Shown one piece after another: positions 1-28,246 of a stretch of 32,000 bases of DNA. Each line of letters starts with the position of its first letter. Within the stretch, counting starts at the first letter, position 1. The position numbers and the translations under genes were made by a program. Below the pieces are notes generated by a model. That model was not told where the DNA came from. It ran no database searches and was given only the letters and a program-made list of their open reading frames with translations. This DNA is from Nostoc sp. PCC 7120 = FACHB-418. GTDB lineage: Bacteria; Cyanobacteriota; Cyanobacteriia; Cyanobacteriales; Nostocaceae. The stretch is taken from NCBI RefSeq assembly GCF_000009705.1, contig NC_003272.1:420001-452000 (forward strand), written 5' to 3'.

Positions 1-61
1 CATCTGATTTTTTACTTTTATCTTCTCAACTACTGTACCAAACCGTTAGACAAAGTGCTGT

Positions 62-107
62 AATCACTAACATAGAAGCTGGTAATTTTCCCCTTATGTT
101 AGTGATT
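62..107 (-). terminator. Putative stem-loop terminator downstream of the S8/RTX protease gene
   Basis: Perfect 13-bp inverted repeat AATCACTAACATA (62-74) / TATGTTAGTGATT (95-107), starting 17 nt past the minus-strand stop codon at 124-126. The loop is long (20 nt) and there is no clear U-tract, so the call is weak. Confidence 0.3.
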
Positions 108-123
108 TACTTGCCATAAATCC

Positions 124-2826
124 CTAAGCAACAACGAGAATATCTGCATTGGTCAAGGACAGTCCAGTATTGAGGGTAGCAAATTGAACTTTAGCGATCG
201 CACCCGTGCCATCCTGATCAAAGAAGAGAGCGCCGTTGTTTCGGTCGTAGAGGAATCGGTGGCTAGCAGTAGTGGCGGCTGAACCTAGTAAAAACTGACT
301 AGATGCGATCGCCGCACCTACAACCAACCCGCCACCAAAGCCAGCCGCAGAGACAACAATAGTGTCATCAACCACGTTAAAATCGGTAATTCTGTCGATA
401 CCTTCACTACGAGAATTGAATGTAAAGCGATCGCGTCCTACACCCCCTGTTAGTGTATCGTTACCAGTACCACCAACGAGGATGTCATTACCGTTACCAC
501 CAAGGAGAGTATCAACACCTGCACTACCATTAAGAGTATCATTGCCATCTCCACCATTTAGGGTATTGTTGCCACTGTTACCTGTAATGACGTTGTTAAG
601 ACGGTTACCTGTACCATTGATTGCAGATGTACCTGTGAGAGTCAAATTCTCTAAACTATTGCCTAATGTATAGCTGATAGATGACTGAACTAAGTCTGTA
701 CCTTGGTTGGCATTTTCCAAAACGTAGTCGCCTATACTATCAACAATGTAGGTGTCGTTACCTCCGCCACCAAGCATCGTATCATTGCCTGTACCACCAT
801 TGAGAATGTCATTACCATTGCCAGCAATCAGGAAATCATTACCAGCATCGCCATTGAGGGTATTATTGCCACTGTTGCCAGTGATCGTATTGTTGAGACT
901 GTTACCTGTACCGTTGATTGCACCCGTACCAGTCAGAGTCAAATTTTCTACATTCGCGCCCAGAGTATAAGTAACAGATGACTGAACTGTGTCTATACCT
1001 TCGTTAGCGTTTTCCGTAACGATATCCCCAGTGCTATTGACTATATATGTGTCGTTACCTCTACCACCCCTGAGCGTATCGTTACCTACTCCGCCATCGA
1101 GAGTATCATTACCCCTACCACCATGCAAAACGTTAGCAGCACTATTACCGATAATTGTGTCATTACCATCACCACCAAAAGCATTTTCGATTGTAGTTCC
1201 CGTACTGATAGTTAAGACGGTTCCATTGAGGATACTTGTAGACCCTGGATTTAGGTTGAGGTAAGAGTCAGCAGTAATCGCCGCCGCATTAATCGTGTCA
1301 GTACCTGAACTATCGGTTAGTGTCGTTGAGCCATAAAAACCATACTCATTGGTGTAGAAATAAGTGTCATTGATAGTATCAGCATCGCCGTATAAATTTA
1401 ATTTCCAACTATTAAAAATGCCGATATCTGAGGGGCCTAAATCTTGTATTGTCAGTGTCCAATTGCCAGCGCTGGTTTCTCCCCAGTGTTGCGTACTGGA
1501 GAGTTTAAACACAATATTGTCTCCCTCATCTTCCTTATTACCAGGTTGATGAACCAAAACACTCTGAACCCCACTCGGAGAAGTCAGGTAAACAACTATA
1601 TCACCCCGATAAGGATGAGTCAGATTAAGTTCTACTTCTACCCAGTCAATTTCTAAGCCAGCCGCCACCGTAAAAGTGTGACTAATTCCTGCCTCATCGT
1701 TATCAGGAACAGTCAAACCTAGATTACCTGAACTGTAAGAAAGAGACTGCTCGTTGTTGAATCGGCTCTGTTTTTGCCAAGTCTCAGCCAAACGCACAGC
1801 AGCAAGCGCATCTACCAAACCGAACCCATAATCATGGCTGACGTGTAAACCCCCACCATTAAAATTGTTAGCACCGTTAATTTGCCAAATGTAATTTCCC
1901 CCTACGTTATAGAAATCATTCTGGCGGGCGGAATAGGCGAGAATTTCTTGTATGTCTCGATAACCTAAATTCCGATTGGCTTCCAGCATTAAGGCGACTA
2001 CCCCAGAAACTTCAGGTGCTGCTGCTGAAGTGCCGTTAAACTCGTAGTTATAGTCTCCTAAACTAGAACCTTCTGATCCTCTACGGTCTGTAGTCACAAT
2101 ACTACCAGGAACCCCACTGCCAAAAGCTGAAACTAGAATAGAAGCCCCTGGAGTGCTATAAAAGGAAGCTGTACCATCATATTCAAGCGCTGCTACCGAA
2201 ATGACGTGGCGAGAGTTGGAAAAGTTGGAATAATTGGTATTTAAACCCTCTTCTCTGGAATTTCCAGCTGACCAGACAATTGCAGTCCCTAATCCATTGC
2301 GTCCAAACTGGACAGCATCCCGAATAGCTTGAACTACTGGAGCATATCCAGGATTAAGAAAATCAGCCCCAAAAATTGATGTGCTACCCCAACTATTATT
2401 AGCGACATCCACATTGCGTAGGCGCTGCAATGCCCGAATCATACTATCAGAATTGTTGTAACTAAATCGGAAGGAAGCTAAGGTTGAACCATAAGCTACA
2501 CCCACCCCACCAATACCATTTCCCGCAGCTGCACCAATCACACCCGCAACAGAAGTAGCATGACCGCTTTCTCCAGCTAGAGGGTAAGGATTACCACCGT
2601 TGGTAACGCCATCATAATCAATAGCAGTATTGTAATTGGGAGCTAAATCAGGATGAGTGTATTCAACACCACCCCCTTCAAATACACCAACCGTCACACC
2701 CCTCCCGGTATAGTCATCCCAAACATCGACTACATTGAGGTCAAGACCACGAGTACCAGTAAACCAATCGTAGTTGTATAAATGCCATTGATACTGAAAT
2801 AAAGGATCAGAAGGAAAAGTAGGCAT
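124..2826 (-). CDS. S8 (subtilisin/kexin-like) peptidase with a proprotein-convertase P-domain and C-terminal RTX hemolysin-type Ca-binding repeats; probable T1SS substrate
   Basis: 900-aa ORF. The N-terminus starts directly at the kexin-like DPLFQYQWHL motif. S8 motifs present: His SGHATSVAGVIG, NNSWG, oxyanion SAGNS, Ser GTSAAAPEVSG. P-domain-like segment: HPYRGDIVVYLTSPSGVQSVL...WGETSAGNWTLTIQD...WKLNLYG. Many GGxGxDxL nonapeptides follow (GGRGNDTLDGGVGNDTLRGGRGNDTYIV and others). No N-terminal signal peptide. Confidence 0.85.
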   Translation of the reverse strand: MPTFPSDPLFQYQWHLYNYDWFTGTRGLDLNVVDVWDDYTGRGVTVGVFEGGGVEYTHPDLAPNYNTAIDYDGVTNGGNPYPLAGESGHATSVAGVIGAAAGNGIGGVGVAYGSTLASFRFSYNNSDSMIRALQRLRNVDVANNSWGSTSIFGADFLNPGYAPVVQAIRDAVQFGRNGLGTAIVWSAGNSREEGLNTNYSNFSNSRHVISVAALEYDGTASFYSTPGASILVSAFGSGVPGSIVTTDRRGSEGSSLGDYNYEFNGTSAAAPEVSGVVALMLEANRNLGYRDIQEILAYSARQNDFYNVGGNYIWQINGANNFNGGGLHVSHDYGFGLVDALAAVRLAETWQKQSRFNNEQSLSYSSGNLGLTVPDNDEAGISHTFTVAAGLEIDWVEVELNLTHPYRGDIVVYLTSPSGVQSVLVHQPGNKEDEGDNIVFKLSSTQHWGETSAGNWTLTIQDLGPSDIGIFNSWKLNLYGDADTINDTYFYTNEYGFYGSTTLTDSSGTDTINAAAITADSYLNLNPGSTSILNGTVLTISTGTTIENAFGGDGNDTIIGNSAANVLHGGRGNDTLDGGVGNDTLRGGRGNDTYIVNSTGDIVTENANEGIDTVQSSVTYTLGANVENLTLTGTGAINGTGNSLNNTITGNSGNNTLNGDAGNDFLIAGNGNDILNGGTGNDTMLGGGGNDTYIVDSIGDYVLENANQGTDLVQSSISYTLGNSLENLTLTGTSAINGTGNRLNNVITGNSGNNTLNGGDGNDTLNGSAGVDTLLGGNGNDILVGGTGNDTLTGGVGRDRFTFNSRSEGIDRITDFNVVDDTIVVSAAGFGGGLVVGAAIASSQFLLGSAATTASHRFLYDRNNGALFFDQDGTGAIAKVQFATLNTGLSLTNADILVVA

Positions 2827-3156
2827 AATCTTATGTTTTTATTTTGACCATTTAACCCTGCATAATTTTACAGAGTACGAAATGAACAAGAATTAGTCGT
2901 TTATGCTTTATGCAGTCTTAAATGCAGGATTGAGTATCGATGTATGCAACATCATGTATGCAGAGTTGCAGAAAACTGCATTCTTTATGAGCGTAAATGG
3001 ATTCATCAGGTTGCTACACCTGGACATACAATATTTGTAACGCTCCTTTACAACTGCTTCAGCCAAATCATAGCGATCGCCTAAACTTAGACTGGAGCGG
3101 TAATATTTCCTCGGCGATCGCTCAGGAATTTTCACTTAACAAACCTTATATAAGAT

Positions 3157-6100
3157 TTGCCTGAGAGCAAAATTGTGATTAAACAAGATTATTTAAACTG
3201 GTATTTCACCTTAAGCTTATTAGTCAGCCTGACTTTAACAACAAATGCGAAAACCTTGGCACAAGTCACCGCCGACCAAACATTAGGAACACAAGTTACA
3301 GATATTGGCTTAAGTTATTTTGTTCAAGGTGGTACAACAGTTGGTAACACTAATTTATTCCACAGTTTTGGTAGTTTCAATGTTCCTAATGATGGTGCAG
3401 CAATTTTTATCAACGACCCCAGTTTAACTAATATCTTTGCACGAGTAACTGGTGGCACAGTTTCCGATATTCAAGGCAGAATAGGAACTCAAGGTACTGC
3501 TAATTTATATTTAATCAATCCTAATGGCATTATTTTTGGTACAAATGCTAGTTTAAATATCGGTGGTTCTTTTGTTGCTACCACTGCTAATACTATTCAA
3601 TTTCCTGGTGGTGCTGAATTTTCTCTAACTTCACCAGTTACATCAACAAACACACTACTAAGTGTCAACCCTACAGCATTTTTATTTAATCAAATTGCGA
3701 ATCAGGGTACAAACTCCATTGAAAATCGCGGTTATTTAGCAGTTCCTAATAATAAGAGTTTAATCTTACTTGGTGGTAATATTGCACCCACATCTAACGC
3801 CACTGGAAAAATTTTAATCGATGGTGGAGTGGTTCAGGCATTAAATGGTAGGGTAGAAATTGGTGGATTAGTTGAACCTGGTTTTATAGGAATTAATGTT
3901 GATGGCAACCAATTAAGCCTAACTTTTCCTGATAGTGTAGCAAAAACAGATATTTCATCGATTAATAATGGTACCGTTTTTACTTCTGGTGCTGGTGGTG
4001 GTGATATTGTAGTTAATGCTGATAACTTGAGCTTACTAAATTATGGTGCTTTTTTTACAGGCATACTTAATAACCAAGGAAACGCGGAAACTCAAGCAGG
4101 TGATATCTCAATTAATGCTACAGGCATTGTCACTGTTGCTCAAAATAGTATTATCTCCAATTCCTCTTTGGGAATTGGAGATAGTGGAAAAATCAACATT
4201 GTTGCTCAATCACTGCAAATCATTGATAATAGCTCAGTTCAATCATTTTCATTACAAGGTAATTCAGGAACAGTTAATGTTAAAGTGGATGATACGGTTT
4301 CCCTATTAAGCGGCCAAATTAGCAGTAGTGTTCGGCCAAGAGGTGCCTCTGCCTCTTCTTTACAGTCAAATTTATTAGGTACACCGACTAGGGGGAAAAG
4401 TGGTGGTATTAATATCCAGGCGCGCAGTCTTTTAGCAGTAGATAGTAGTGCGATAAGTGCAAGCAACTTTTTGGCAGATGATTCTGGAGATATTAAAATT
4501 CAAGCTACTGATGCGGTTATTTTGAATAACAGATCAACTATATCTTCAAGTGCTTTTGGCCAAGGGAAATCAGGTAATTTATCCATTAATACTAATTGGT
4601 TAAATATAATCAATAATTCTCAAATAACAGCTAATACCTTAGGAACTGGAAATGCTGGTGATATTAATATCATTGCTCTTGATATTAATATAGATAAATC
4701 TTTGATTACCGGAAGTACATCCTCTTTTTTAAACACTATCGTTAATTTAGGGAATGCTGGAAATATTAATATTCAAACGGCACGAATTAATCTAACTAAT
4801 AGTGGCTTCATTATATCTACTTCTGGCAGACCAGAACAGAAAGAAACAAGTGGTTTTGGTGGTAATATTAATATTACAGCCACTGAATTAATAGAAATAG
4901 ATCCAAAAGGTGCGACAGATATAATCACAGGTTTTAGTACCAGAACTTTTAGTGGTAGCCGTGCTGGTGACATAACGCTAAATACCAAAAATTTGATTGT
5001 GAGAAATGGCGGTGTTATCATGGCAGATGCTGCTAATAATTTAGGAGGAAACGCGGGAAACATTAATATCAATGCCTCCGATACTGTTAAGCTCATTAGC
5101 TCTCTAGGAAATTCTTATAGTAGAATTTTTACGGGTGTTGTATCTTCTGATAATAATGTGATGAATGCGGGTAATGGTGGGGAGTTAAATATTACCACTG
5201 GAAAATTACAGCTAACAAATGGCGTTATATCAGCAGCAACATTAGGTCAAGGTCATGCAGGTAATATTACTATATCTAGTAATGATGAGATAGTTCTTGA
5301 TAGTGGGTTAATATTTAGTCAAGTTGATGCTGGTGCAGTTGGGAATGGGGGAGATATTAATATTCAGACACCAAGACTAACTTTAACTAATGGTAGTCAA
5401 GTTGATGCTAGTATTCGGCGTGGAGGAATAGGCAAAGGTGGAACTATTCGCATTGATGCAGCCGATTCTGTAATTATTTCCGGACGGGATGCAGACGGTT
5501 TTGCTAGCTTATTAGCAGCTGGCAATGAAGGAGGAAGTATTGGTCAACCAGGAGACATTATTGCTAATACAGATTATTTTCTCATAGAAAAAGATGCTTT
5601 CCTGAATACAGGAACCTTTAACTCCAGTAACGGAGGTAGTGTTACCATTAATACTCGTATCTTTGAGGCTTTGACTGGTGGACGAATTTTTTCCAGCACT
5701 AGTAGTAGTGGCAAAGCAGGCGACATTATTATTAATGCTACAGATAGTATAACCGTCTCTGGGGTAAGTCCAGAAACTAGAAATAATGCTGCGATCGTTG
5801 CAGGAACACTTATAGACTCCACTGGTAATGGAGGAAAAATATCCTTATCCACTACTAATTTTAATTTAAGTAACGAGGCTGGAGTTTTCACACGCAGTCA
5901 GGGACGAGGCATTGCAGGGGACATCAACATCACTGCTAGAGGCAATTTGAATGTTAATAATGCTTTTATCAGCGCACGAGCTGAACAGGCTGGTGGTGGA
6001 AATATCGATATCATCACTAAAAATGTTAACCTACGCAATCACAGTGATATCCGCACAGATTTATCTATAGGTGAAGGTAGAGGTGGTAATATTTCCCTCA

Positions 6101-6633
6101 CAGCAGATATCATCATTGCCTTAGAAGATAGCGATATTCTCGCCTTTGCACCGGAGGGACAAGGTGGGGATATTAAATTTAATACCCGCGCTGTATTTAG
6201 CGATTCGCTCTACAACTCCAGACAAACAGCATCTGATAGAAATAGTCTTCAGTCACTAGTGAGTAATAGTAGTTCCGATATTAACGCTACAGGGACAATC
6301 TCTGGCAAGATTATTGGTGTACCTGATATTAGCTCTATCCAAAACGGACTCACAGAATTACAAGCTAATCCCATTGATACTACAGTACTTATTGCTAATA
6401 GTTGCATTGCTCGTAGTCGTAGACAAGAAGGGACTTTTATTATTACGGGGACTGGTGGTTTACCAACTCGTCCTGGTGAGGCCGTGAATTCCAGCTACCC
6501 CACAGGTGATGTGCAGAGTGTCACTCATCAGAGTACGGCTAGTTTGTGGAAAAAAGGTGACCTGATTATTGAACCGCAAGGAGTGTATAAGCTGGCGAAT
6601 GGAGATGTGGTGATGAGTCGTGAGTGTCATTGA
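3157..6633 (+). CDS. Two-partner-secretion (TpsA/filamentous hemagglutinin N-terminal domain) beta-helical exoprotein, paralog 1
   Basis: 1158-aa ORF. Signal peptide ends ..KTLA/QVTAD. TPS-domain motifs: NTNLFHSFGSFNV and LINPNGIIFG. Long array of about 20-aa beta-helix repeats (GNAGNINI type). By homology to paralog 2 the true start is probably GTG 3175 (MIKQDYLNWYF), not TTG 3157. Confidence 0.85.
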   Translation: MPESKIVIKQDYLNWYFTLSLLVSLTLTTNAKTLAQVTADQTLGTQVTDIGLSYFVQGGTTVGNTNLFHSFGSFNVPNDGAAIFINDPSLTNIFARVTGGTVSDIQGRIGTQGTANLYLINPNGIIFGTNASLNIGGSFVATTANTIQFPGGAEFSLTSPVTSTNTLLSVNPTAFLFNQIANQGTNSIENRGYLAVPNNKSLILLGGNIAPTSNATGKILIDGGVVQALNGRVEIGGLVEPGFIGINVDGNQLSLTFPDSVAKTDISSINNGTVFTSGAGGGDIVVNADNLSLLNYGAFFTGILNNQGNAETQAGDISINATGIVTVAQNSIISNSSLGIGDSGKINIVAQSLQIIDNSSVQSFSLQGNSGTVNVKVDDTVSLLSGQISSSVRPRGASASSLQSNLLGTPTRGKSGGINIQARSLLAVDSSAISASNFLADDSGDIKIQATDAVILNNRSTISSSAFGQGKSGNLSINTNWLNIINNSQITANTLGTGNAGDINIIALDINIDKSLITGSTSSFLNTIVNLGNAGNINIQTARINLTNSGFIISTSGRPEQKETSGFGGNINITATELIEIDPKGATDIITGFSTRTFSGSRAGDITLNTKNLIVRNGGVIMADAANNLGGNAGNININASDTVKLISSLGNSYSRIFTGVVSSDNNVMNAGNGGELNITTGKLQLTNGVISAATLGQGHAGNITISSNDEIVLDSGLIFSQVDAGAVGNGGDINIQTPRLTLTNGSQVDASIRRGGIGKGGTIRIDAADSVIISGRDADGFASLLAAGNEGGSIGQPGDIIANTDYFLIEKDAFLNTGTFNSSNGGSVTINTRIFEALTGGRIFSSTSSSGKAGDIIINATDSITVSGVSPETRNNAAIVAGTLIDSTGNGGKISLSTTNFNLSNEAGVFTRSQGRGIAGDINITARGNLNVNNAFISARAEQAGGGNIDIITKNVNLRNHSDIRTDLSIGEGRGGNISLTADIIIALEDSDILAFAPEGQGGDIKFNTRAVFSDSLYNSRQTASDRNSLQSLVSNSSSDINATGTISGKIIGVPDISSIQNGLTELQANPIDTTVLIANSCIARSRRQEGTFIITGTGGLPTRPGEAVNSSYPTGDVQSVTHQSTASLWKKGDLIIEPQGVYKLANGDVVMSRECH

Positions 6634-6656
6634 ACAAATGTTTAAAAGCAAAGCTT

Positions 6657-9600
6657 ATGATTAAACAAAAAAATTTTAATTGGGTTTTTTACTTAGGTTT
6701 ATTATTCAGCGTAGGTGTAACAACAAATAACCAAACCTTGGCACAAGTCACAGCCGACCAAACATTAGGAACACAAGTTGTAGATATTAATTTAAACTCC
6801 TTTATTTTAGGTGGTGCAACAGTTGATAACACTAATTTATTTCACAGTTTTGGTAGTTTCAATGTTCCTAGTGGTGGTGCAGCAATTTTTATCAACGACC
6901 CCAGTTTAACTAATATCTTTGCACGAGTAACTGGTGGCACAGCTTCCGATATTCAAGGCAGAATAGGAACTCAAGGTACTGCTAATTTATATTTAATCAA
7001 TCCTAATGGCATTATTTTTGGCACAAGTGCTAGGTTAAATATCGGTGGTTCTTTCGTCGCTACCACAGCTAACGCCATTCAATTTCCTAGTAGTACTGAA
7101 TTTTCTTTAACTTCACCAGTTACATCAACAAACACACTACTAAGTGTCAACCCTACAGCATTTTTATTTAATCAAATCGCCAATCAAGGCACAAACTCCA
7201 TTGAAAATCGCGGTTCTTTAATAGTTCCTAATAACAAGAGTTTAATCTTACTTGGTGGTAATATTGCACCCACATCTAACGCCACTGGGGAAATTTTAAT
7301 GGATGGCGGAAGACTTGGAGCATTAGGTGGTAGGGTGGAAATTGGTGGATTAGCTGCACCTGGCTCTGTGGGAATAAATACTAATGGCAACAGTTTAAGC
7401 CTAAGCTTTCCTGATAGCGTAGCAAGAGCAAATACTTCATTAATAAATAATGCTTTGATTCTTGCTTCTGGTGTTGGCGGTGGTGATATTGTAGTTCATG
7501 CTAATAGTTTGAGTTTACTAAATAGTAGTGATTTTTTTGCAGGTATACTTGATAATCAAGGAAGCTCTCAAACTCAAGCAGGTGATATTGCCATTAATGC
7601 TACTGGCATTGTCACCGTTGCTGAAAATAGTATCATAGGAAATTCGTCTTTAGGAATTGGAGATAGTGGGAATATCAACATTGTTAGTCAATCGCTGCAC
7701 ATAATAAATGGTAGTGTTCAGGCATTTTCTCTACAAGGCAATTCAGGAACAGTTAATATCAAAGTTGGTGATACAGTTTCCCTGTCAGAAAGTCAGATTA
7801 GCAGTATTGTTCGACCCAAAGATTCCTCTTTACAGTCAAATTTTTTAGGAACGCCAACTCGTGGAAAAAGCGGTGGTATTAATATCCAAACGCGAAATCT
7901 TTCAGTGGTTGATAATAGTATAATAAGTGCCAGCAACATTTTGGCGGATGATTCTGGAGATATTAAAATTCAAGCTAATAATTCCGTTATTTTGAATAAT
8001 AGAGCAACTATCTTCTCAAGTGTTTTTGGACAAGGAAATGCGGGCAATTTATCTATTATTACTAATCGTTTGGATATAAGAAATAATTCTCAAATAGCAA
8101 CTACTACATTTAGCAATGGAAATGGAGGTGATATTAATATTAATGCTCATGACATTAGTATAGATAAGTCTTTTATTAGCGGAGGTGCATCGTCTTTCCG
8201 AACAGATATCACAAATATAGGTAATGCTGGGACTATCAATATCCAAACAGAAAGAATTAGTCTCACAAATCGTGGTTTGATTACATCTATTTCTGACGAA
8301 CCAGCACCGGAAAAAACAATCGGTTATGGCGGAAATATTAATATTACAGCTAATGAATTAATAGAAATAGATACAAAAGGTACAACAGGTGTAATTACGG
8401 GTTTAGTTGCCAGAACTTTTAGTGGCAGTCGTGCTGGTGACATAAACCTGAATACCAAAAATCTGATTGTTAGAGATGGCGGTTATATCAGCGTAGAAGC
8501 TGCTAATAATTTAGGGGGAAATGCTGGTAATATTACTATCAACGCATCAAATTCTGTTGAGTTAACTAGCTCCATTGGCAACCGTCCTAGTATAATTTTT
8601 ACTGGTGTTTCAGACTTTAATGATAATGCGATCGCTGTGGGTAACGGTGGTGACTTAAAAATTAGTACTCAAAATTTACAGCTAACAAACGCCGCTATAT
8701 CAGCCGGGACTTTCGGTCAAGGTAATGCAGGCAATATTAATATCTTCAGCAATGATGGGGTGGTAATTGATAATAGTGTGATCAATAGCCGAATTGGTGC
8801 TGGCGCAGTTGGAAATGGTGGTGATATTGACATCCAGACACAGAGGCTAACTTTAACTAATGGTGGTGGGATTGATACTGTAGTCTCCCCACCAGAAGGA
8901 AATTTACCTGGCGGACAGGGTAAAGGCGGAACTATTCGTATCAATGCTACAGATGCAGTCACTATTTCAGGAACTAATGCTAATGGGTTTGAGAGTGCAA
9001 TCTTGACTGAAACCCAAGGAGGAGCCTTTGGTCAATCTGGCGATATCATCATTAATACGGATTATTTCCGTGTCGTAGACAACGGTAGTGTATCGACATT
9101 AACAGGAAATAGTAGTGATGCAGGTAATATTCTGATCAATACCCGTGTAATGGAGGTGTTGAATGGTGCAGCAGTAGTTACAGGAACTGAGTCTATTGGT
9201 AAAGCTGGTGACATTACCATTAATGCTACAGATAAAATTAACATCTTGAGCAACACCGACTTACATGGTAATACTGGTTTACTGGCTAGCACTACTTCTA
9301 GTGGAGATGCGGGGAATATATACCTATTTACAACTGAACTTAACTTATTAGCCCCTAATTCTAACTTGCCAGCTCCCGTCCTTGTGGCCACATTAAGTCA
9401 AGGAAGCGGAATAGCCGGGAATATTAATATTGTTGCCACAGGTAATTACAATGCCAATAATGGCTTAATCAGCGCACGATCTGAACAAGCCGGTGGTGGA
9501 AATATCAGTGTCAATGCTAGAAATATCAACCTACGGAATAACAGCGACATTCGTACAGATTTATTTAGTGGTAGCGGTAAGGGTGGAGGAATTTCCCTCA

Positions 9601-10133
9601 CCGCAGATATTATCATTGCCTTAGAAGATAGTGATATTCTCGCCTTTGCACCGGAGGGACAAGGCGGCGATATTAACTTTAATACCCGTGCTGTGTTTAG
9701 TGATGCTCTCTACACTGCTAGGGAAACAATACCTGATAGCAATAGTCTTCAGTCAATAGTTAATAATAGTCGCCCTGACATTAACGCCACAGGGACAATC
9801 TCTGGCAATATCATTGGTGTACCTGATATTAGCTCTATCCAAAACGGACTCACCGATTTACAAGCTAATCCTATTGATACTACAGTACTGATTGCTAATA
9901 GTTGTATTGCTCGTAGTCCTAGACAAGAAGGAACTTTTATTATTACGGGGACTGGTGGTTTACCAACTCGTCCTGGTGAGCTTAAGGCTTCTAATTATCC
10001 CACAGGAGATGTGCAGAGCGTTAGTAATAATAATGTAGCTAGTGCGTGGAAAAAAGGCAACGCTATAGTTGAACCACAAGGAGTATATCGACTGGCAAAT
10101 GGGGATATGGTGATGAGTCGTGAGTGTAGTTAA
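6657..10133 (+). CDS. Two-partner-secretion (TpsA/filamentous hemagglutinin N-terminal domain) beta-helical exoprotein, paralog 2
   Basis: Same architecture as 3157-6633. The N-terminal roughly 300 aa and C-terminal roughly 200 aa are nearly identical to paralog 1. ATG 6657 (MIKQKNFNWVFY) is preferred over the ORF-track GTG 6624, which would overlap the end of paralog 1. It lies 23 nt after the upstream stop, so the two are probably an operon. Confidence 0.85.
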   Translation: MIKQKNFNWVFYLGLLFSVGVTTNNQTLAQVTADQTLGTQVVDINLNSFILGGATVDNTNLFHSFGSFNVPSGGAAIFINDPSLTNIFARVTGGTASDIQGRIGTQGTANLYLINPNGIIFGTSARLNIGGSFVATTANAIQFPSSTEFSLTSPVTSTNTLLSVNPTAFLFNQIANQGTNSIENRGSLIVPNNKSLILLGGNIAPTSNATGEILMDGGRLGALGGRVEIGGLAAPGSVGINTNGNSLSLSFPDSVARANTSLINNALILASGVGGGDIVVHANSLSLLNSSDFFAGILDNQGSSQTQAGDIAINATGIVTVAENSIIGNSSLGIGDSGNINIVSQSLHIINGSVQAFSLQGNSGTVNIKVGDTVSLSESQISSIVRPKDSSLQSNFLGTPTRGKSGGINIQTRNLSVVDNSIISASNILADDSGDIKIQANNSVILNNRATIFSSVFGQGNAGNLSIITNRLDIRNNSQIATTTFSNGNGGDININAHDISIDKSFISGGASSFRTDITNIGNAGTINIQTERISLTNRGLITSISDEPAPEKTIGYGGNINITANELIEIDTKGTTGVITGLVARTFSGSRAGDINLNTKNLIVRDGGYISVEAANNLGGNAGNITINASNSVELTSSIGNRPSIIFTGVSDFNDNAIAVGNGGDLKISTQNLQLTNAAISAGTFGQGNAGNINIFSNDGVVIDNSVINSRIGAGAVGNGGDIDIQTQRLTLTNGGGIDTVVSPPEGNLPGGQGKGGTIRINATDAVTISGTNANGFESAILTETQGGAFGQSGDIIINTDYFRVVDNGSVSTLTGNSSDAGNILINTRVMEVLNGAAVVTGTESIGKAGDITINATDKINILSNTDLHGNTGLLASTTSSGDAGNIYLFTTELNLLAPNSNLPAPVLVATLSQGSGIAGNINIVATGNYNANNGLISARSEQAGGGNISVNARNINLRNNSDIRTDLFSGSGKGGGISLTADIIIALEDSDILAFAPEGQGGDINFNTRAVFSDALYTARETIPDSNSLQSIVNNSRPDINATGTISGNIIGVPDISSIQNGLTDLQANPIDTTVLIANSCIARSPRQEGTFIITGTGGLPTRPGELKASNYPTGDVQSVSNNNVASAWKKGNAIVEPQGVYRLANGDMVMSRECS

Positions 10134-10286
10134 TTTTCTTTTTTACTATTACTAAAATATATAGTCAATACATTTTTCTGCAATTTTTGATGATAGTTCC
10201 TGCATATCAACCAGCATAGAAAGTGAATACACTCTATCATTAATCTCCTTTAATCTGTTCAATAAAGTAATTATTGGTAAGGTTAC

Positions 10287-10508
10287 ATGATGAAGAAAGG
10301 CAATATTTTACTCATAACCTTATTAACAGCATCAATATTCATCAATGGTGGCATGGCAAAAGCCAACACACAATCGGATAGACAAGAGATTATCCGCAGA
10401 TATCAATGGATGAGTGATGGTTGCAATGCCAGAATACTCGCTAAATGTTACGCCTACGTGTGTGTCAATTGGTTTTCAAGCTTGCAGAGCAGATGGCAGT
10501 TTAACTAA
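10287..10508 (+). CDS. Small hypothetical protein with an N-terminal signal/TM segment (possibly frameshifted)
   Basis: 73-aa ORF with a signal-peptide-like start (MMKKGNILLITLLTASIFINGGMAKA). Its tail overlaps a second ORF (10414-10596) in another frame that looks more protein-like. No recognisable family. Confidence 0.3.
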   Translation: MMKKGNILLITLLTASIFINGGMAKANTQSDRQEIIRRYQWMSDGCNARILAKCYAYVCVNWFSSLQSRWQFN

Positions 10509-10746
10509 TTTCACAGAAGAAGTTCAAAGCGCGTACAAGTTATTTCAACAAGCTAGTCATATCACATCAAATTACACTTATTCAGGCTTAAATTAATTTT
10601 TTCAGTAATACTTGTTTATTTAAACAAATTATTCTGATTGAGCTGTATACTGGTTCCTCGATTAAGTAGTTATACTCAAATCGCACATAGCAGTCGAATC
10701 ATAGTTGAGGAAATAAATCAATGAATAATGATCAAACCTATACACT

Positions 10747-10773
10747 AAAGGGATTTTAAGAACTTCCCTTTTT
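10747..10773 (+). terminator. Possible weak intrinsic terminator
   Basis: AAAGGGA (10747-10753) pairs with TCCCTTT (10765-10771) around an 11-nt loop, running into a 5-T tract (10769-10773). Lies downstream of the small ORFs and upstream of the calpain-like gene. Confidence 0.25.
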
Positions 10774-10924
10774 GCCTGCTATATTGCGTATTTCTACCCT
10801 AGATCATTAACAAACTTAAAGCGCAACATTAAACAAATTTCACCATATCTTTTTGTTTAAAGCTTTAAGCATTTACAGTGTGTAATTTTTCAAGTGGTTT
10901 CGACTAGATTCAGTAAGGAAAAGT

Positions 10925-12430
10925 ATGGCTCTTGATAAAGTAGGTAACACCCTCAGTAACAGTCAAAAAATAACTTTCAATACTAAAACTCAGACTATTT
11001 CTGACTGGGTAGGCTCCTCAGATATCAATGATTTCTATAGCTTTAGTTTAAGTTCTCATAGTAGTGTGAGTATTGCTATAGATGGCTTAAGCGCTAATGC
11101 AGATTTACAACTGCTTAAGGACAAGAATAGCAATAACTCAATTGATAAAGGTGATGTGATTGCTAGTTCTAGTAAAGGTGGAACTCTCAGTGAATCAATT
11201 AGCAAAACTTTAAACGCTGGGAATTACTTTATTAGAGTCTATTCAAAACGTGGTAACACTGAATATGAGTTGAAATTTTTTCAAACTTCTTCAACTTCTC
11301 CAGAAGAAGTCTACAAAGAGAGTAGCGTTAGTAGCAATGCAGGAAATAGCACATTGGCCGCTACCAGTGCAGATTGGTTTAGTCAAAATTTAAACGACCA
11401 AAAAATTGTTTCTCTAGCACGCAACTTAGCATCTGATGGGAAATTAAGCCGTCAGGATATGTTGGATATTTTCAGAAATGTCCAAGATAATTCTGTGGTT
11501 GACAGCAACGAGGTAAAAGACCTGAAAACAATAGTTGCTGCTGGGAACAACTTTAATATCGAAGACCATGTTAAATGGCTCTCAGCACAGGTTGCTAATG
11601 GGGCCTCATCAGGCATGAGTGCTAGTAATTTTGAGTCTAAATTAGTCGGTCGCTGGTTTTTAGGAACTGTAGCACCGACACCTGAGTTTAATGGTAAAAA
11701 GCTTACTTACACTGAGGTCAAGGGTAATCTTTTTGGTAGTACTAATAAGGCGGAAATCGGCGATATTCATCAAGGAATAATCAATGACTGTACATTCTTA
11801 GCTGCTTTGGGTGCAACCTTTAGCCGTCAGTCTGATGATTCAGGTAATGCTTCCAGTTCTGTGATCAAGAACATGATTAAAGACAACGGAGACAATACTT
11901 ATACTGTACGCTTTTACTCAGGTAAATATTATGCACCTGGTGAAGCACAATATGTAACAGTAGACCGTCGTATTGCCACCAACATAGCTGCTCAAAGAAA
12001 TGATGGTGTTCTTTGGGTAGCGTTAGTAGAAAAAGCTTATGCTCAATGGCGCGAATGGACAGATGGTCGCCCTGGCTATAACATCATTGGTAATGGCGGC
12101 GCTCTTGCTCCTCCTCTTAGCTTCATTACAGGACGCAAGACCAATAACTATAGTAAGAGTAGAATCAGCTTTTCGCTGCTGGAAGATGCTTTGAAAGCTG
12201 GCAAGGCTATAACTACATCCCGTTCAGGCAAAGATACTTCGTTTATTTTAGGTTCCCATGCCTATTCAGTGAGCAACGCTTACATTAGTGCTAGTGGGGA
12301 GCAACGTGTTGTAGTTCGCAACCCTTGGGGAGTAGACGGCAAAGCTAAAAGTGGCGCTAATGATGGGTTTATCAACTTATCCTATCAAGAGTTTATCAAC
12401 TCTTTCAATCTAGGGGTTAGCGTCTCCTAG
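10925..12430 (+). CDS. Calpain-like (peptidase C2) cysteine protease with an N-terminal pre-peptidase C-terminal (PPC)-type domain
   Basis: 501-aa ORF with a good RBS (AAGGAA 5 nt upstream). PPC-like N-terminus: DINDFYSFSL...ADLQLL...GNYFIRVY. Calpain triad motifs in order: Cys QGIINDCTFLAALGA, His GSHAYSV, Asn VVRNPWG. No signal peptide. Confidence 0.8.
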   Translation: MALDKVGNTLSNSQKITFNTKTQTISDWVGSSDINDFYSFSLSSHSSVSIAIDGLSANADLQLLKDKNSNNSIDKGDVIASSSKGGTLSESISKTLNAGNYFIRVYSKRGNTEYELKFFQTSSTSPEEVYKESSVSSNAGNSTLAATSADWFSQNLNDQKIVSLARNLASDGKLSRQDMLDIFRNVQDNSVVDSNEVKDLKTIVAAGNNFNIEDHVKWLSAQVANGASSGMSASNFESKLVGRWFLGTVAPTPEFNGKKLTYTEVKGNLFGSTNKAEIGDIHQGIINDCTFLAALGATFSRQSDDSGNASSSVIKNMIKDNGDNTYTVRFYSGKYYAPGEAQYVTVDRRIATNIAAQRNDGVLWVALVEKAYAQWREWTDGRPGYNIIGNGGALAPPLSFITGRKTNNYSKSRISFSLLEDALKAGKAITTSRSGKDTSFILGSHAYSVSNAYISASGEQRVVVRNPWGVDGKAKSGANDGFINLSYQEFINSFNLGVSVS

Positions 12431-13505
12431 TAGAAATAGATCAACAAAGAGTATCTCGTACACAAGTTCTCAAGCATCTACTCCGAACTGATGCACTACG
12501 TTGTCTGTTCAAACTTGGTGTAAGCGTATGGGGGGTGTAAAGGTTTTGAACATCAACACCCCTCCTTCTCCCAACCCTTAATTTTTAGTTTTCAGATGTA
12601 AGTCATGCACTCAAGAAGACTCGTTATTAAAGAAACTAAATTTTTAGTAAAAAAATATACTTTACTAATGCAAAACGCTTTGATGAGCAAAATAGGTTTT
12701 GCGTATTTATCATCGAGTTAAAAATACTACCTTTATTCTGCACAGACAAAACAGCTTATAAAAACGTCAAAGTATAAACAATTATAAAACAGTTAATTTT
12801 TAACTATATTGACTACCTTATCTAAAATAATGTAGCTCCGAGAATTTTGTACAACATAAATATTATTAGATGAAGTTATTTTATTTGCATATATCAATAG
12901 TTACAATTCTTGATTATAAAAATATCTATCAAAGGTTATACCGAGTAGAATGGTTCTTCTAAAAATATACTTTTTGCAAGTAGATTCTATTTAATCTACT
13001 TAAAAGTTATTCAGCGTGATAAAGGGAGTCTATGTACCTACCCATATGCCTGACAAGCCTGTGTTCTTTATATTGCAAGTACTACAGCAAAAATAAAAAT
13101 TTCAAAAGTAATATTTAAGTCCGTATAAGACTAATGTTTTTTATATTAAATTCTTTCTCCTTAAATTGACAATAAATACTAAATTATCAAAGCATCCATC
13201 TAAAGTAATAGAAATTAAAATAGCAAATTAATTTAAAAAATATAAATCTTTAATTAACCATTTAAACTTAGCGGTTTCTTTATAAAAGACTAAATAACAA
13301 CATGAAATTAATGTGTAATGATACTGATTAAGTAAAGTACATAATTAATCTATAGGCATTAACTTAACTTTGTTTATACTACTTGGTTAAGGGAAATTCG
13401 CGTACATATATGATTTTTATGTTACCGATGCCTATAGTTAATTACAGGGTTTGTACTTAGCTAATTTGGAATCATCTTGAAATTAGAGAACCGTAAACTA
13501 CTGAC

Positions 13506-14210
13506 ATGGTGAATAAAATGAGAAATTTTCAGAACTGGGGTCGCAGCGTAGCATTAGCAAGTAGTACATTGGCTTTAGGCTCTGCCTTGGCTATTTCCTC
13601 AAGCATCTCCTCTGCTCAGGCTGCATCTCTTGGTGCAATCAATATTACTGGTGGGGCTATTATCGGTAACGTTATTGATATCTCACCAGACAATGACACT
13701 ATTTCATTCACTGCGCCTTTTACGACCGTATCGTCCAGTGGCCCATTTTCTGGTTTGGTTGCTAGCTCTATATCTACTATCAATCTAGTGCTTACAGGTG
13801 CTGGAGTAGAGGTTTTGGGAACAACTGTAACACCCTACTCAGCCACAACTACCGCTCCATTCATTAGTTTTGTGGATGGTTCCAACTTTGTGGTTGATGA
13901 TCCCTCCATTGCTGGTCGAAACTTTACTCCTGGCGATGATGAGAATATCGTAGGATACACGTTGCCTCAATTACGAGGAACATTCTTCAGTAACACTGGC
14001 GACTTCTTAAGCGAAGGAATCCTCACAGCAAATCAAATCAGTGGAACTGGTATCAATGGCAGTTTCTCCTTGACTCTGTCTGCTGTTGAGGTTGGAATAG
14101 GCCAACCAGTACCAGAACCTGCAACCGCAGGCGCACTTGCTGCTTTAGGAATAGGTGCGCTTTTTACAAACAACGTGGTTAAGAAAAAGAAAGTAAAAAT
14201 AAACGCTTAA
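13506..14210 (+). CDS. PEP-CTERM sorting-domain protein (secreted or cell-surface, exosortase substrate)
   Basis: 234-aa ORF. N-terminal signal peptide (..SSISSAQA/AS). C-terminal motif VPEPATAGALAALGIGALF followed by a basic tail (KKKKVK). The start could instead be ATG 13518. Confidence 0.85.
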   Translation: MVNKMRNFQNWGRSVALASSTLALGSALAISSSISSAQAASLGAINITGGAIIGNVIDISPDNDTISFTAPFTTVSSSGPFSGLVASSISTINLVLTGAGVEVLGTTVTPYSATTTAPFISFVDGSNFVVDDPSIAGRNFTPGDDENIVGYTLPQLRGTFFSNTGDFLSEGILTANQISGTGINGSFSLTLSAVEVGIGQPVPEPATAGALAALGIGALFTNNVVKKKKVKINA

Positions 14211-14235: not shown

Positions 14236-14684
14236 CTGATTAACCTTGTAAAACCTCTATGACTTTTAAGGGTTATAGGGGTTTTATAACTAAAAGTTGA
14301 GAAAATTGCAGGCATAGCAAATCTGTTTTGCTGGAAATATATCTGCGTTTTATTTCGTACTGTTTTCTAATTAGTCTGGAGTTTTTTAAAGTTTGTTTAC
14401 TGCTCCCTGTCAAACACTTCCTTTTCACCAGTGTCTTTCGCTTCCGATTCCCAAACCAGACTCACGACGGGTGAATTCGCACCAGTGTTCTTTCGGTTTT
14501 TTTGTCTAGGAATTGCCTTGAATTCTAGATTACAACTTCTCTTATCCCTGGCTTCACTTTGTTTCTTCCGCCCTTCCCGTAGGTGCGCCTCCAACGGAGG
14601 CGCACGTTAACTTAACCAGGTTTATACCAATTCACAATTGAGAGACATTAGAAGTAACGGAACTTTCGTAATTTTTGAATTGAT

Positions 14685-15980
14685 TCATTCATATTCTTGC
14701 AGTGACCCTAACTTGACAATTCCCGGCCAAATCGCAGCCGTAGCAACCACGACTAAAATCGTGCCAATACCGCCACCAACTACGGAAAGCACAGGGCCGA
14801 ATAAAGCTGCCGTTAGACCAGATTCAAAACCTCCCAACTCATTGGAAGCGCTAATAAATACGCTATTAATCGCTGCAACTCGACCGCGTAATTGGTCGGG
14901 GGTTCTGATTTGCACCAATGTATGGCGAATCACTACGCTGATAGTATCTAGTGCGCCACTCAGGGTAAGCATGATTAGGGATAGCCAAAACCACCGGGAA
15001 AGACCAAAGATAATTGTCACCACACCAAAGCCAATCACAGACCACAATAAAGCTGTCCCAGCTTTACGTAGTGGTGGGAGATAGGCTAAGGTCACAGCCA
15101 TAATTAAAGCGCCGATGGAAGGCGCTGCTTGTAAGTATCCCAGTTCTACTGGCCCCACCTGCAAAATATCTTTGGCAAAGACTGGTAACAGTGCAACTGC
15201 GCCTCCTAATAAGACAGCAAACATATCTAAGGTAATAGCTGCCAGAATTAATTGATTTTCCCAAATGAACTTAGCACCGGCGGCTAGTACTTGTAAGGAT
15301 ATAGGTTCAGTGACACGCTCAACTGTTTTCTCTTTGATTGCTGCCATGAAGAGAAAACACAAAAAACCAGCGATCGCTGCTAAGATATACACTCCTGTGG
15401 CGCTTCCTAGTACTGCAATCCCCAAACCACCCAAAGCCGGGCCAGCCACAGATGCTAACTGAAAGCTACTACTATTCCAAGTGGCTGCATTGGTAAACAC
15501 ATTCACTGGTATTAACTGCCACATAATTGCATCACTGGCAGGCTTGAGAAATGCTCTACCCACACCAATAAGCGCCAAGCAGCCATAAATTAAAAATACT
15601 GCGCCTCTAGTATAAGACAGTACTGCTAAACCCAGGGAGCAGAGCGCTAATAACATTACTGACAATAATATAGTCAGTTTGCGTGAACGGCGATCGGCAA
15701 TATCTCCAGCAACTAAGGTGAGGGCAATCATCGGTAAGACTTGGGCTAACCCCACGCCACCTAACACCATAGCTGAGTTAGTGCGTTCGTAGAGTTCCCA
15801 ACCAATAGCTACAGTCTGCATCTGTGATCCCACAGATAGCAGCACACGTCCTAATGTAAATAGGCGATAGTCTCGAAACCTCAAAGCGGCAAAGGGGTCG
15901 TGCTGGTTAGCTTCAGCGCTTGGGGGGGGTGAATTCCGTTTGATCAAAGACATTTTTGAGTAAAGCCAATCCTTTTTCAA
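14685..15980 (-). CDS. MFS transporter (12-TM efflux type)
   Basis: 431-aa ORF, hydrophobic throughout with about 12 predicted helices. MFS-like loop GDIADRRSRK between TM2 and TM3. Its 5' end overlaps the 3' end of the upstream MarR gene, suggesting an operon. Confidence 0.8.
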   Translation of the reverse strand: MKKDWLYSKMSLIKRNSPPPSAEANQHDPFAALRFRDYRLFTLGRVLLSVGSQMQTVAIGWELYERTNSAMVLGGVGLAQVLPMIALTLVAGDIADRRSRKLTILLSVMLLALCSLGLAVLSYTRGAVFLIYGCLALIGVGRAFLKPASDAIMWQLIPVNVFTNAATWNSSSFQLASVAGPALGGLGIAVLGSATGVYILAAIAGFLCFLFMAAIKEKTVERVTEPISLQVLAAGAKFIWENQLILAAITLDMFAVLLGGAVALLPVFAKDILQVGPVELGYLQAAPSIGALIMAVTLAYLPPLRKAGTALLWSVIGFGVVTIIFGLSRWFWLSLIMLTLSGALDTISVVIRHTLVQIRTPDQLRGRVAAINSVFISASNELGGFESGLTAALFGPVLSVVGGGIGTILVVVATAAIWPGIVKLGSLQEYE

Positions 15981-23648: not shown

Positions 23649-23808
23649 AATCTTTGTCCTTGCTTGTTGATGAAAGTGGATTTATTCTGACATCCCTGTG
23701 GAAGTGGGATTTTCCATTAGGGGTGGAGAATGTAGACAAACTAAGAGAATTAACTTCCCCACTGTTACACGTATCTGTAAAGACTCGTAGTGTCTTTTCT
23801 TATAAGAG

Positions 23809-23814
23809 TATAAT
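23809..23814 (+). promoter_or_regulatory. Candidate -10 box for cas1
   Basis: Perfect TATAAT lies 22 nt upstream of the proposed cas1 ATG. No convincing -35 element. Confidence 0.2.
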
Positions 23815-23836
23815 CGCGTCTTTACTGTTTATCCAC

Positions 23837-24847
23837 ATGACGACACTTTATCTAACCGAACCAGGAACTATACTCCGTTATCGCAACGAGTCGTTAATTA
23901 TCATGAAGCAGGAAAAATCTCACAATTGTCGCCTAGCAGAAATCACGCTTATAGTTGTTTTACCAGGTGTTCAGTTGACCGATGTGGTGATTTCCCAATT
24001 ACTTGACCGGGGTATTGAAACGATATTTCTTCGTCAAGATGGACAATTTCGCGGTCGTCTCCAGGGACACTTTGCAACTAACATGACTATTCGTCTAGCT
24101 CAGTACCGCACTGTAGAAACTACATTTGGGATGGCGCTAGCACAAAAATTGGTGATTGGTAAAGTGCGTAACCAACGAGTTCTGCTACAACGGCGTAACC
24201 GCGCTACGAATGGACAGATTAGTGAATTAACCGAAGCAATTGATTTAATTAGCGTCTATGCTTCCCAGTTGAACAACACTACTACGCCGTTAAATCGTAA
24301 CGAACTTATGGGAGTTGAGGGAATTTGCGCTCGGACTTATTATCAAGCGCTTAAACATTGGTTTCCGACGCAGTGGAATTTTAACGGACGCAATCGCCGT
24401 CCACCATTAGACCCAATTAATGCGTTATTGAGTTGGGGATATGGCGTATTGTTAGCACGGGTGTTTTCTGCTTGTGTCCAAGCTGGACTTGACCCATATT
24501 TAGGATTTTTCCACGCTATTGAACCCTATCGCCCGAATTTAGTGCTGGATTTGATGGAAGAGTTTCGACCCGTGGTGGTAGACCAAGCCGTGATTTCTCT
24601 AATTCAGTCAGACTTATTAACCCAAGAAGATTTTCAGCCTTCCCCTGATGGTGTGGGTATTTGGTTGGGAACTATGGGAAAAAAGCTATTACTAGGAGAA
24701 TTAGAACGTCGCTTCCGCACCTCTGTACTTTATCCCCCACAAAATCGCCAATTGAGTTTGAATCAAATTTTACTGGAACAAGCCCGCAGTTTGGGACGCT
24801 GTTTATTACAGTCAAAGTTAGACTATGAAGCATTTGTTATCAAATGA
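23837..24847 (+). CDS. cas1: CRISPR-associated endonuclease Cas1
   Basis: Cas1 pattern: MTTLYLTEPG..., catalytic-region motifs LMGVEG, LGFFHA, LVLDLMEEFRP. The ORF is open from 23654, but ATG 23837 gives the usual length of about 336 aa. Followed by cas2 and a CRISPR array. Confidence 0.9.
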   Translation: MTTLYLTEPGTILRYRNESLIIMKQEKSHNCRLAEITLIVVLPGVQLTDVVISQLLDRGIETIFLRQDGQFRGRLQGHFATNMTIRLAQYRTVETTFGMALAQKLVIGKVRNQRVLLQRRNRATNGQISELTEAIDLISVYASQLNNTTTPLNRNELMGVEGICARTYYQALKHWFPTQWNFNGRNRRPPLDPINALLSWGYGVLLARVFSACVQAGLDPYLGFFHAIEPYRPNLVLDLMEEFRPVVVDQAVISLIQSDLLTQEDFQPSPDGVGIWLGTMGKKLLLGELERRFRTSVLYPPQNRQLSLNQILLEQARSLGRCLLQSKLDYEAFVIK

Positions 24848-24850
24848 AGA

Positions 24851-24941
24851 TGACTGATGACTGATGACTGTTGACTGATGACTGTTGACTGTTGACCGTT
24901 GACTGTTGACTGTTGACTGTTGACTGTTGACTAATGACTAA
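24851..24941. repeat. STRR heptamer tandem repeat (TGACTGW)x13 filling the cas1-cas2 intergenic space
   Basis: 13 consecutive 7-mers (TGACTGA / TGACTGT / TGACCGT / TGACTAA), counted directly. The tract carries stop codons in all three forward frames. Confidence 0.95.
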
Positions 24942-24954
24942 AAACCAATAACTA

Positions 24955-28228: not shown

Positions 28229-28246
28229 GAGACAAAAATCATCCCA

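Follow-up and report, generated by a model that had tools for sequence, protein, structure and literature searches.

A kexin-like subtilase gene beside tandem TpsA-type exoprotein genes in Nostoc sp. PCC 7120: a probable arm of a cyanobacterial two-partner secretion cassette

A 32,000-nucleotide stretch of the chromosome of Nostoc sp. PCC 7120 (NC_003272.1, positions 420,001 to 452,000 of the forward strand; the whole of it is called the window here, and coordinates count from its first letter unless another locus is named) encodes at its left end a kexin/furin-like subtilase of family S8 and, divergent from it, two TpsA-type exoproteins of two-partner secretion (TPS). The subtilase, a 900-residue protein in which Pfam recognizes an S8 catalytic domain, a P domain and RTX repeats, is read from the minus strand (124..2826). 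A divergent intergenic region of 330 bp (2827..3156) separates it from the gene of TPS-1 (plus strand, 3157..6633, 1158 aa), which is followed in tandem by the gene of the paralogue TPS-2 (plus strand, 6624..10133, listed as an open reading frame (ORF) of 1169 aa); gene callers place the two starts at 3175 and 6657, for proteins of 1152 and 1158 aa, respectively. On the other side, in the spacer 3' of the S8 stop codon (1..123), the ORF of an IS630 transposase starts at about position 3 and leaves the window leftwards. An earlier reading of the window sequence (the original prediction) had recognized the S8 gene, the divergent gap of 330 bp and the tandem TPS pair, as well as a calpain-like (C2) protease gene downstream, and all of these features were found again. 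What it had made of them, a self-contained island in which both proteases mature the exoproteins, fares less well and is taken up below.

TPS-1 and TPS-2 have the layout of TpsA proteins, with, in order, a signal peptide (ending TLA|QVTAD), a TPS domain carrying the NPNG motif, a repeat-rich shaft that is, on inspection of the sequence, rich in Gly, Asn and Ile, and a C-terminal module. The TPS domain matches PF05860 with E values of 3e-49 (TPS-1) and 1e-52 (TPS-2), the NPNG domain TIGR01901 is found in both, and the NPNG motif itself lies at 3517-3528 in TPS-1 and at 6999 in TPS-2. Along their entire length the two proteins share 70% identity. Both reading frames, of ~1150 codons each, are intact, and the ratio of nonsynonymous to synonymous substitution (dN/dS) relative to the Nostoc parmelioides orthologues (0.28 for TPS-1 and 0.33 for TPS-2) is that of genes under purifying selection. 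Synonymous divergence (dS) between the two paralogues (window 3175-10133) is distributed unevenly, at 0.18-0.25 in the N-terminal TPS domain, 0.36 in the C-terminal module and 0.5-1.45 in the middle; because it is so much lower at both ends than mid-protein, it suggests that gene conversion keeps the secretion and putative anchoring ends of the two proteins alike.

The C-terminal module comprises the last 118 residues of each exoprotein (6277..6630 in TPS-1 and 9777..10130 in TPS-2, both on the plus strand). A word-indexed homologue search with the module returned short fragments only, and an exhaustive search was used instead. It yielded 1232 cluster representatives (826 of them at E <= 1e-10), and in these the module always stands at the extreme C-terminus, in host proteins ranging from 126 to 2174 aa. 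The mature forms of TPS-1 and TPS-2 contain exactly two cysteines each, and both lie inside the module (aa 1083 and 1157 of TPS-1; aa 1094 and 1168 of the 1169-aa TPS-2 ORF). Family-wide these two positions are nearly invariant (Cys in 152/152 and 151/152 sequences). A second TPS gene of the same lineage was seen elsewhere (locus L100, RSCN01000036.1, 5665-9235); it is split by a frameshift into ORFs of 998 and 206 aa, its neighbours include a phage-type integrase gene and an HNH gene, and neither TpsB nor CHAT is encoded nearby.

The S8 protein matches Peptidase_S8 (E 6e-37), P_proprotein (3e-26) and RTX repeats (5e-37), and among solved structures it is closest to furin and kexin, in an alignment that spans catalytic and P domains (residues 5-482, E 1e-52). 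It has the order of domains that characterizes S8B subtilases, catalytic domain and then P domain. The signal peptide and inhibitory propeptide of that group are missing, the ORF start, MPTFPSDPLFQYQWHL, aligning with residue 6 of the furin chain of entry 1p8j. Its counterpart of the Asp-His-Ser triad also departs from the rule. The conserved His (2551-2565), Asn (2254-2268) and Ser (2014-2034) correspond to furin His194, Asn295 and Ser368, and a glutamate (VFEGGG, 2668-2685, S8 residues 48-53) lies opposite the catalytic Asp153 of furin. This Glu comes with a one-residue insertion and marks a subclade with VFEG[GDT]G and HAT in place of the V[IV]D-DG and HGT of its relatives; the members are the window protein and those of L009, L010, L011, L014, L015, L021, P0040 and P0081 (L numbers denote loci compared with the window). 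A sister subclade that is also TPS-linked keeps the canonical Asp. The window's S8 subclade may represent a Glu-His-Ser variant of the subtilase triad, and the dN/dS of the window's S8 gene, 0.15-0.16, indicates strong purifying selection. TPS-linked members occur in both Nostocales S8 subclades of a neighbour-joining tree, with the unlinked ones nested among them, and relatives of the size of the Anabaena protease PrcA form a separate clade with the canonical Asp. The S8 protein of Desmonostoc muscorum LEGE 12446 (L023, locus positions 10001-12832) has Asn for the catalytic His and GD for GN, and looks degenerate. At the same locus (3981-9672) the reverse transcriptase gene of a group II intron lies between a TPS gene of 1002 aa and a 199-aa fragment with the C-terminal module.

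The C-terminal half of the window's S8 protein is RTX sequence, with ten GGxGxD motifs, and Pfam finds there no autotransporter domain, hence no counterpart of the beta-domain of SphB1-type proteases. It ends in ...ADILVVA, a tail that on inspection resembles those of substrates of type I secretion systems (T1SS). RTX repeats, tail and absence of a signal peptide would fit type I secretion by a transporter encoded elsewhere. No pair of T1SS ABC transporter and membrane fusion protein (MFP) is listed among the neighbours at the Pfam-annotated S8 loci, where one weak HlyD/RND-type MFP-like match was seen in Calothrix (L014); L009-L013 were checked against cassette families only. PrcA itself (Alr1381) is a Ca-dependent S8 protease found in the Anabaena exoproteome (PMC4390845); it comes from the same organism and shares with the window protein the combination of S8 domain, P domain and Ca-binding repeats. 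Identity of the two was considered, the divergent All1380/Alr1381 pair being of similar appearance, and rejected: PrcA, of 71.5 kDa against 93.7 kDa, is the product of a different gene, with different neighbours, futABC and the gene of the 21-kDa protein All1380.

On the source chromosome the S8 stop codon is followed, past the window edge, by the IS630 transposase gene and then by genes for an 883-aa TPR-CHAT protein, a DUF928 protein, a 633-aa CHASE2 protein and a response regulator, the last four within 1-8 kb of window position 1. The S8 gene of this chromosome thus lies between TPS and CHAT, co-oriented with CHAT and divergent from TPS. In loci L001 and L003 the insertion sequence (IS; HTH_Tnp_IS630 plus DDE_3) occupies 12824-13769 and the S8 gene ends at 12703, leaving a gap of ~121 bp; blastn against L009 did not place the exact ends of the IS630 element, the intergenic DNA having diverged. 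The usual partners therefore only seem to be missing, because the window ends where it does and an IS was inserted recently.

Of the 12 S8 loci examined, 8 have a TPS gene no more than 10 kb from the S8 gene, in several gene orders. In the window, which represents the PCC 7120 type, the two TPS genes diverge from S8. The same arrangement is found in N. parmelioides (L009), whose S8 protein is 96% identical and whose S8 gene runs on, contiguously and without an IS, into a co-oriented TPR-CHAT gene, followed by DUF928, CHASE2 and response regulator genes on the opposite strand. Nostoc FACHB-280 (L022) has the full set: a TpsB gene of the ShlB type, then TPS divergent from S8, CHAT co-oriented with S8, and DUF928, CHASE2 and response regulator genes reading the other way. 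Nostoc foliaceum (L010) has TPS, TpsB and a second TPS gene, divergent from S8; Desmonostoc geniculatum (L013) and D. muscorum LEGE 12446 (L023) have a TPS gene divergent from S8. The divergent S8/TPS geometry thus recurs in L009, L010, L013, L022 and L023. Other orders are found in N. linckia (L012), where a TPS gene faces an oppositely directed series of TpsB, DUF928, CHASE2 and response regulator genes, with a forward S8 gene beyond, and in D. muscorum CCALA 125 (L021), where S8, DUF928, a CHASE2-cyclase gene and, further on, two TPS genes all read in one direction. Co-localization of S8 and TPS genes is conserved, and not accidental. At the FACHB-280 locus (L022, 6230-6673) an ORF for a 147-aa retropepsin-like aspartyl protease (PF13975, PF13650) was noted between TpsB and TPS.

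A wider view of the TPS side was gained by scanning metagenomes with the module alignment, which gave 75 loci, annotated with iterated hidden Markov models (HMMs); the 23 that extend over at least 15 kb are referred to as long loci. The recurrent metagenome order has CHASE2 followed by DUF928, a CHAT gene of opposite direction, TPS and TpsB. Among the long loci CHAT is present in 18, DUF928 in 15, CHASE2 in 12, TpsB in 10, S8 in 6 and C2 in none. The canonical cassette consists of response regulator, CHASE2 sensor, DUF928, TPR-CHAT, TpsA and TpsB; an annotated canonical copy is found on the Nostoc flagelliforme plasmid pNFSY04 (response regulator, CHASE2, DUF928, CHAT, a filamentous-hemagglutinin N-terminal-domain protein and ShlB/FhaC/HecB). 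The PCC 7120 locus has in common with such copies TPS proteins that end in the 118-residue two-cysteine module and the adjoining CHAT, DUF928, CHASE2 and response regulator genes. It differs from them in its tandem TpsA genes, in the acquired S8-P-RTX protease, in the IS630 element between S8 and CHAT, and in having no TpsB gene at the locus. No description of the DUF928/CHASE2/CHAT/TPS cassette as a system was found in the literature and, to our knowledge, TPS systems are essentially unstudied in cyanobacteria.

S8 is a recurrent accessory of this cassette, not a core component. At least three S8 architectures occur in cassette loci, and some are unlike that of the window: an unassigned N-terminal region followed by S8 (L035, L047, L095), and PPC repeats followed by S8 (L041, L077). 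Architectures this distinct mean that a subtilase has been recruited more than once. Every cassette CHAT protein whose N-terminus is complete (27 in all) has an N-terminal hydrophobic export segment (ending, for example, ...VNA|QTP), and DUF928 carries a signal peptide. The CHASE2 protein, in which Pfam sees CHASE2 only, has the topology of one transmembrane segment, CHASE2 and two further transmembrane segments, with a cytoplasmic tail that contains kinase-like N and G1 boxes. In D. muscorum CCALA 125 (L021, 13693-15942) CHASE2 is instead fused to a guanylate/adenylate-cyclase domain, which replaces the kinase-like tail; the output of such a protein would be a nucleotide second messenger, reminiscent of Lap-type control.

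The transporter, TpsB (POTRA_2 plus ShlB-type barrel), that a TpsA protein might be expected to have beside it is not encoded in the window. Among the window ORFs run against Pfam, one of them cut short by the 3' edge, there is no TpsB, no T1SS ABC/MFP component and no exosortase; three small ORFs (362-673, 4773-5096 and 14638-15084), nested in or overlapping large annotated genes, were left out of this comparison. Searches with HMMs at relaxed thresholds recovered no remnant of TpsB, CHAT, DUF928 or CHASE2 in the window and no remnant of TpsB in the 790-bp gap that follows TPS-2. That gap contains a 73-aa ORF (10287-10508) with a signal-peptide-like N-terminus, which is called in several assemblies; it has no Pfam match and no similarity to TpsB. 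As to the plasmids of PCC 7120, no PCC 7120 record figures among the best 15 of 492 plasmid records with a match. Loci that show no TpsB in the fetched stretch are common (13 of the 23 long loci), and one TpsB can serve several TpsA proteins (PMC5422565).

The original prediction had maintained that no TpsB, T1SS or exosortase gene is present in 32 kb and that the partners of these exoproteins differ from the usual CHAT/TpsB set, and had proposed a search of the DNA beyond position 1. The first statement holds for the window ORFs tested, but that partner genes are missing follows from the position of the window edge, the CHAT, DUF928, CHASE2 and response regulator genes starting ~1 kb past position 1; the second falls with the finding of these four genes past the IS630 element and of TpsB in orthologous loci; and the search beyond position 1 finds the four genes and leaves the locus without a TpsB. 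The notion of an exoprotein gene accompanied by that of its maturase retains the S8-TPS linkage, with the several S8 architectures in cassettes in its favour, and loses the C2 protease.

The C2 gene (10925..12430, plus strand) encodes a protein with PPC and Peptidase_C2 domains (Pfam), in which the Cys, His and Asn motifs are all intact. The protein lacks a signal peptide, and N-terminal truncation was rejected as the reason, the whole family beginning MA[LV]DKAGNTL with no Sec signal. Orthologues that are 86-90% identical, in Nostoc NIES-3756 and MS1, adjoin genes for DUF5117/DUF4953 and NACHT proteins, with no TPS or S8 gene nearby. Because none of the 75 TPS loci has a C2 gene and the C2 orthologues sit elsewhere, the C2 protease is judged a bystander, a chance neighbour of the TPS system, and not the module partner that it had been taken for. 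Its conserved downstream partner, likewise outside the TPS system, is a PEP-CTERM-like secreted protein (13506..14210, plus strand; a weak cyano_PEP match, below the curated cut-off); the ORFs 3' of the C2 orthologues (L017, L019) encode 234-237 aa and are 68-77% identical to it, and the genes for C2 and the PEP-CTERM-like protein form a pair conserved across three Nostoc genomes.

One feature of the module might have tied it directly to the S8 protease. The original prediction had pointed to a dibasic site at the module boundary of one paralogue, and the site exists: within the module TPS-1 reads CIARSRR/QEG, with the RR codons at exactly 6418-6423, and TPS-2 has SPR/QEG (9903-9932). The motif R-x-x-R is present in both paralogues (RSRR|Q and RSPR|Q), not in TPS-1 alone. 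In the S8-adjacent TPS sequences first examined (8/8), Arg or Lys precedes an invariant Gln, with an invariant Arg 3-4 residues upstream. In the family at large the residue before the Gln (P1) is basic in 59 of 152 sequences, and in 12/16 from loci with S8 against 29/66 from loci that lack it (Fisher p = 0.049, kinship not corrected). IARS[PS]KQE also occurs in 20-kb loci with no S8 gene (L027, L031), and the S8-bearing loci L041 and L077 have no basic residue at that position. Because the signal runs along clades, with exceptions both ways, the basic motif is treated here as a clade signature that offers no evidence of a kexin site. A basic P1 as an S8-specific cleavage site was accordingly rejected in spite of the nominal p value, and the dibasic claim survives as a description of sequence only.

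The locus is classed here as type Vb secretion with accessory proteases, in a widespread and uncharacterized cyanobacterial cassette. The reading that we favour, at a probability of roughly 0.55, is that positions 1-10133 of the window constitute one arm of this TPS cassette, with a hook-anchored TpsA that is processed by CHAT and S8, and that C2 is unrelated. The sequence of events might be the following. After export by Sec, TpsA would pass through a TpsB encoded elsewhere, and the C-terminal module with its two cysteines would form a disulfide 'hook' that keeps the fibre on the cell surface. In the periplasm the module would be acted on by TPR-CHAT, an exported cysteine protease, in conjunction with DUF928 and with the CHASE2 sensor and its response regulator. 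In those Nostocales that have it, the T1SS-type S8 protease would act outside the cell, on the exposed fibre, trimming or releasing it. The last three of these steps are proposed by analogy with better-known systems. A more elaborate form of the same scheme is put forward tentatively: that the cassette serves regulated release of, or surface signalling by, the TpsA fibre, with CHAT, governed by CHASE2 (a kinase, at some loci a cyclase) and DUF928, cutting the disulfide hook that anchors the fibre in TpsB, and with some Nostocales adding a T1SS-secreted Glu-His-Ser kexin-like protease as a second, extracellular step. We regard this form as less probable than not.

Several observations weigh against the favoured reading. 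S8 is missing from 17 of the 23 long loci, as would not be expected of a core component. Genes related to the window's S8 occur with no TPS neighbour at four loci (L011, L014, L015, L024), and the candidate R-x-x-[RK]|Q site does not follow S8 from locus to locus. With Glu opposite Asp153 of furin, the S8 enzyme may be weak or inactive. The TpsB that TPS-1 and TPS-2 would need in trans was not located in the window or among those best 15 plasmid records. The isolated module is modelled by AlphaFold2 with low confidence (predicted local distance difference test score, pLDDT, 47), and the idea of a hook draws on the cysteine pattern and on analogy. Finally, the predicted masses of the window proteins found no match in the exoproteome tables of PCC 7120.

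Some of these same observations lend themselves to other explanations. The S8 protease could be a general secreted, Ca-dependent scavenging enzyme, a paralogue of PrcA that has a regulatory region in common with TPS and does not act on TPS proteins, the linkage then reflecting co-regulation of genes for surface proteins and the exoproteome. The S8 architecture is in fact very common (>2300 relatives), PrcA-type paralogues occur in unrelated neighbourhoods (PrcA itself being an exoprotein whose gene adjoins futABC), and this explanation would accommodate both the four related S8 loci that lack a TPS gene and the failure of any specific cleavage motif to track S8. It does not readily account for a TPS linkage that persists, through changes of gene order, at 8 of 12 loci, nor for the independent recruitment of unrelated S8 architectures to the same cassette, and we consider it unlikely. 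Somewhat less probable again is that the S8 subclade comprises impaired pseudo-proteases, with Glu-His-Ser in place of a working triad, that bind the TPS fibre or another component of the cassette as a chaperone or adaptor and do not cleave. The replacement of D-DG and HGT by VFEG[GDT]G and HAT throughout the subclade, the Glu opposite furin Asp153 and the additional loss of the catalytic His from the S8 protein of L023 would be understandable on such a basis. On the other hand, the His, the oxyanion Asn and the Ser are strictly conserved under a dN/dS of 0.15, glutamate is still acidic and could act in a triad, and the sister TPS-linked subclade has the canonical Asp.

The locus might also be a decaying remnant, bereft of its TpsB and disrupted by an IS, whose TPS proteins are no longer secreted or functional. 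The window without TpsB, the IS630 insertion, the frameshifted second TPS locus (L100) and the exoproteome tables in which window proteins find no match by mass can all be cited for it. It is nevertheless improbable: both ~1150-codon frames are intact and under purifying selection, a locus with no detected TpsB is the common case among the long loci, and provision of TpsB from elsewhere has the precedent already cited. The self-contained island of the original prediction, two TPS exoproteins matured by S8 and C2 with neither CHAT nor TpsB, has the physical adjacency of the genes in the window to recommend it, and we now give it hardly any credence: C2 is absent from the 75 TPS loci and its orthologues lie elsewhere, CHAT, DUF928, CHASE2 and response regulator genes lie just outside the window, and TpsB is encoded in the orthologous loci L010, L012 and L022.

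The reading of the locus as one arm of the cassette has its closest functional parallel in the CdrA/CdrB system of Pseudomonas aeruginosa. There, the fibre stays in the barrel by means of a cysteine hook at its C-terminus; LapG, a cysteine protease of the periplasm that answers to a signalling protein of the inner membrane, cleaves the tail at that end, and the fibre so released is trimmed by secreted LasB (PMC7616799, PMC11898600, PMC5422565). Likenesses are a TpsA whose only two cysteines lie in the C-terminal module, an exported cysteine protease (CHAT), a membrane sensor (CHASE2) and an S8-RTX protease that is probably secreted. The parts, on the other hand, are not homologous: CHAT is caspase-like (PF12770) and LapG transglutaminase-like; a CHASE2-kinase and response regulator stand in the place of the c-di-GMP receptor LapD; S8 takes that of the metalloprotease LasB; and DUF928 has no counterpart in the CdrA system. 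With CHAT as protease and CHASE2 as sensor, the cassette is not a LapG/LapD system, and the analogy is one of function only. Bordetella FhaB provides a second comparison, its C-terminal region being cut stepwise, in the periplasm by DegP and CtpA and afterwards at the surface by the subtilisin SphB1 (PMC8263021, PMC5422565). SphB1, however, is an autotransporter whose gene lies apart from fhaB; the window's S8 is an RTX protein, probably of the T1SS type, that is encoded beside the TpsA gene and has Glu at the position of the catalytic Asp; and the FhaB prodomain is of ~1200 aa, in contrast with a module of 118 aa.

The remainder of the window contains elements of other kinds. A CRISPR-Cas (clustered regularly interspaced short palindromic repeats) adaptation unit (23654-27810) comprises cas1 (23654-24847; PF01867, E 2e-86), a Cas2-like ORF of ~91 aa near 24950-25230 (PF09827, E 4e-20) and an array, from ~25573 to 27790, of 29 copies of the 37-nt repeat GTTACTTACCATCACTTCCCCGCAAGGGGATGGAAAC, the final copy degenerate; no CRISPR effector gene lies within the window. 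Directly after cas1 the heptamer TGACTGT is repeated in ~12 tandem copies (24851-24932). A 38-nt direct repeat is found at 28081-28238, and the 16-mer CCCTTACACCCTCATA forms ~9 tandem copies at 29427-29566.

TPS systems with dedicated processing proteases are well studied in a few proteobacterial pathogens. The cyanobacterial family to which TPS-1 and TPS-2 belong is large, the C-terminal module alone defining >1200 sequence clusters. The present analysis corrects the annotation picture of one of its loci: the calpain-like gene turns out to be a bystander, and partner genes seem to be lacking because of the window edge and an IS insertion. PCC 7120 is genetically tractable, and its locus can consequently be used to test the control of surface fibres by CHAT and CHASE2 in a multicellular cyanobacterium, to test whether a subtilase encoded beside its putative substrate is a maturase, and to test the activity of an S8 protease in which Glu replaces the catalytic Asp.

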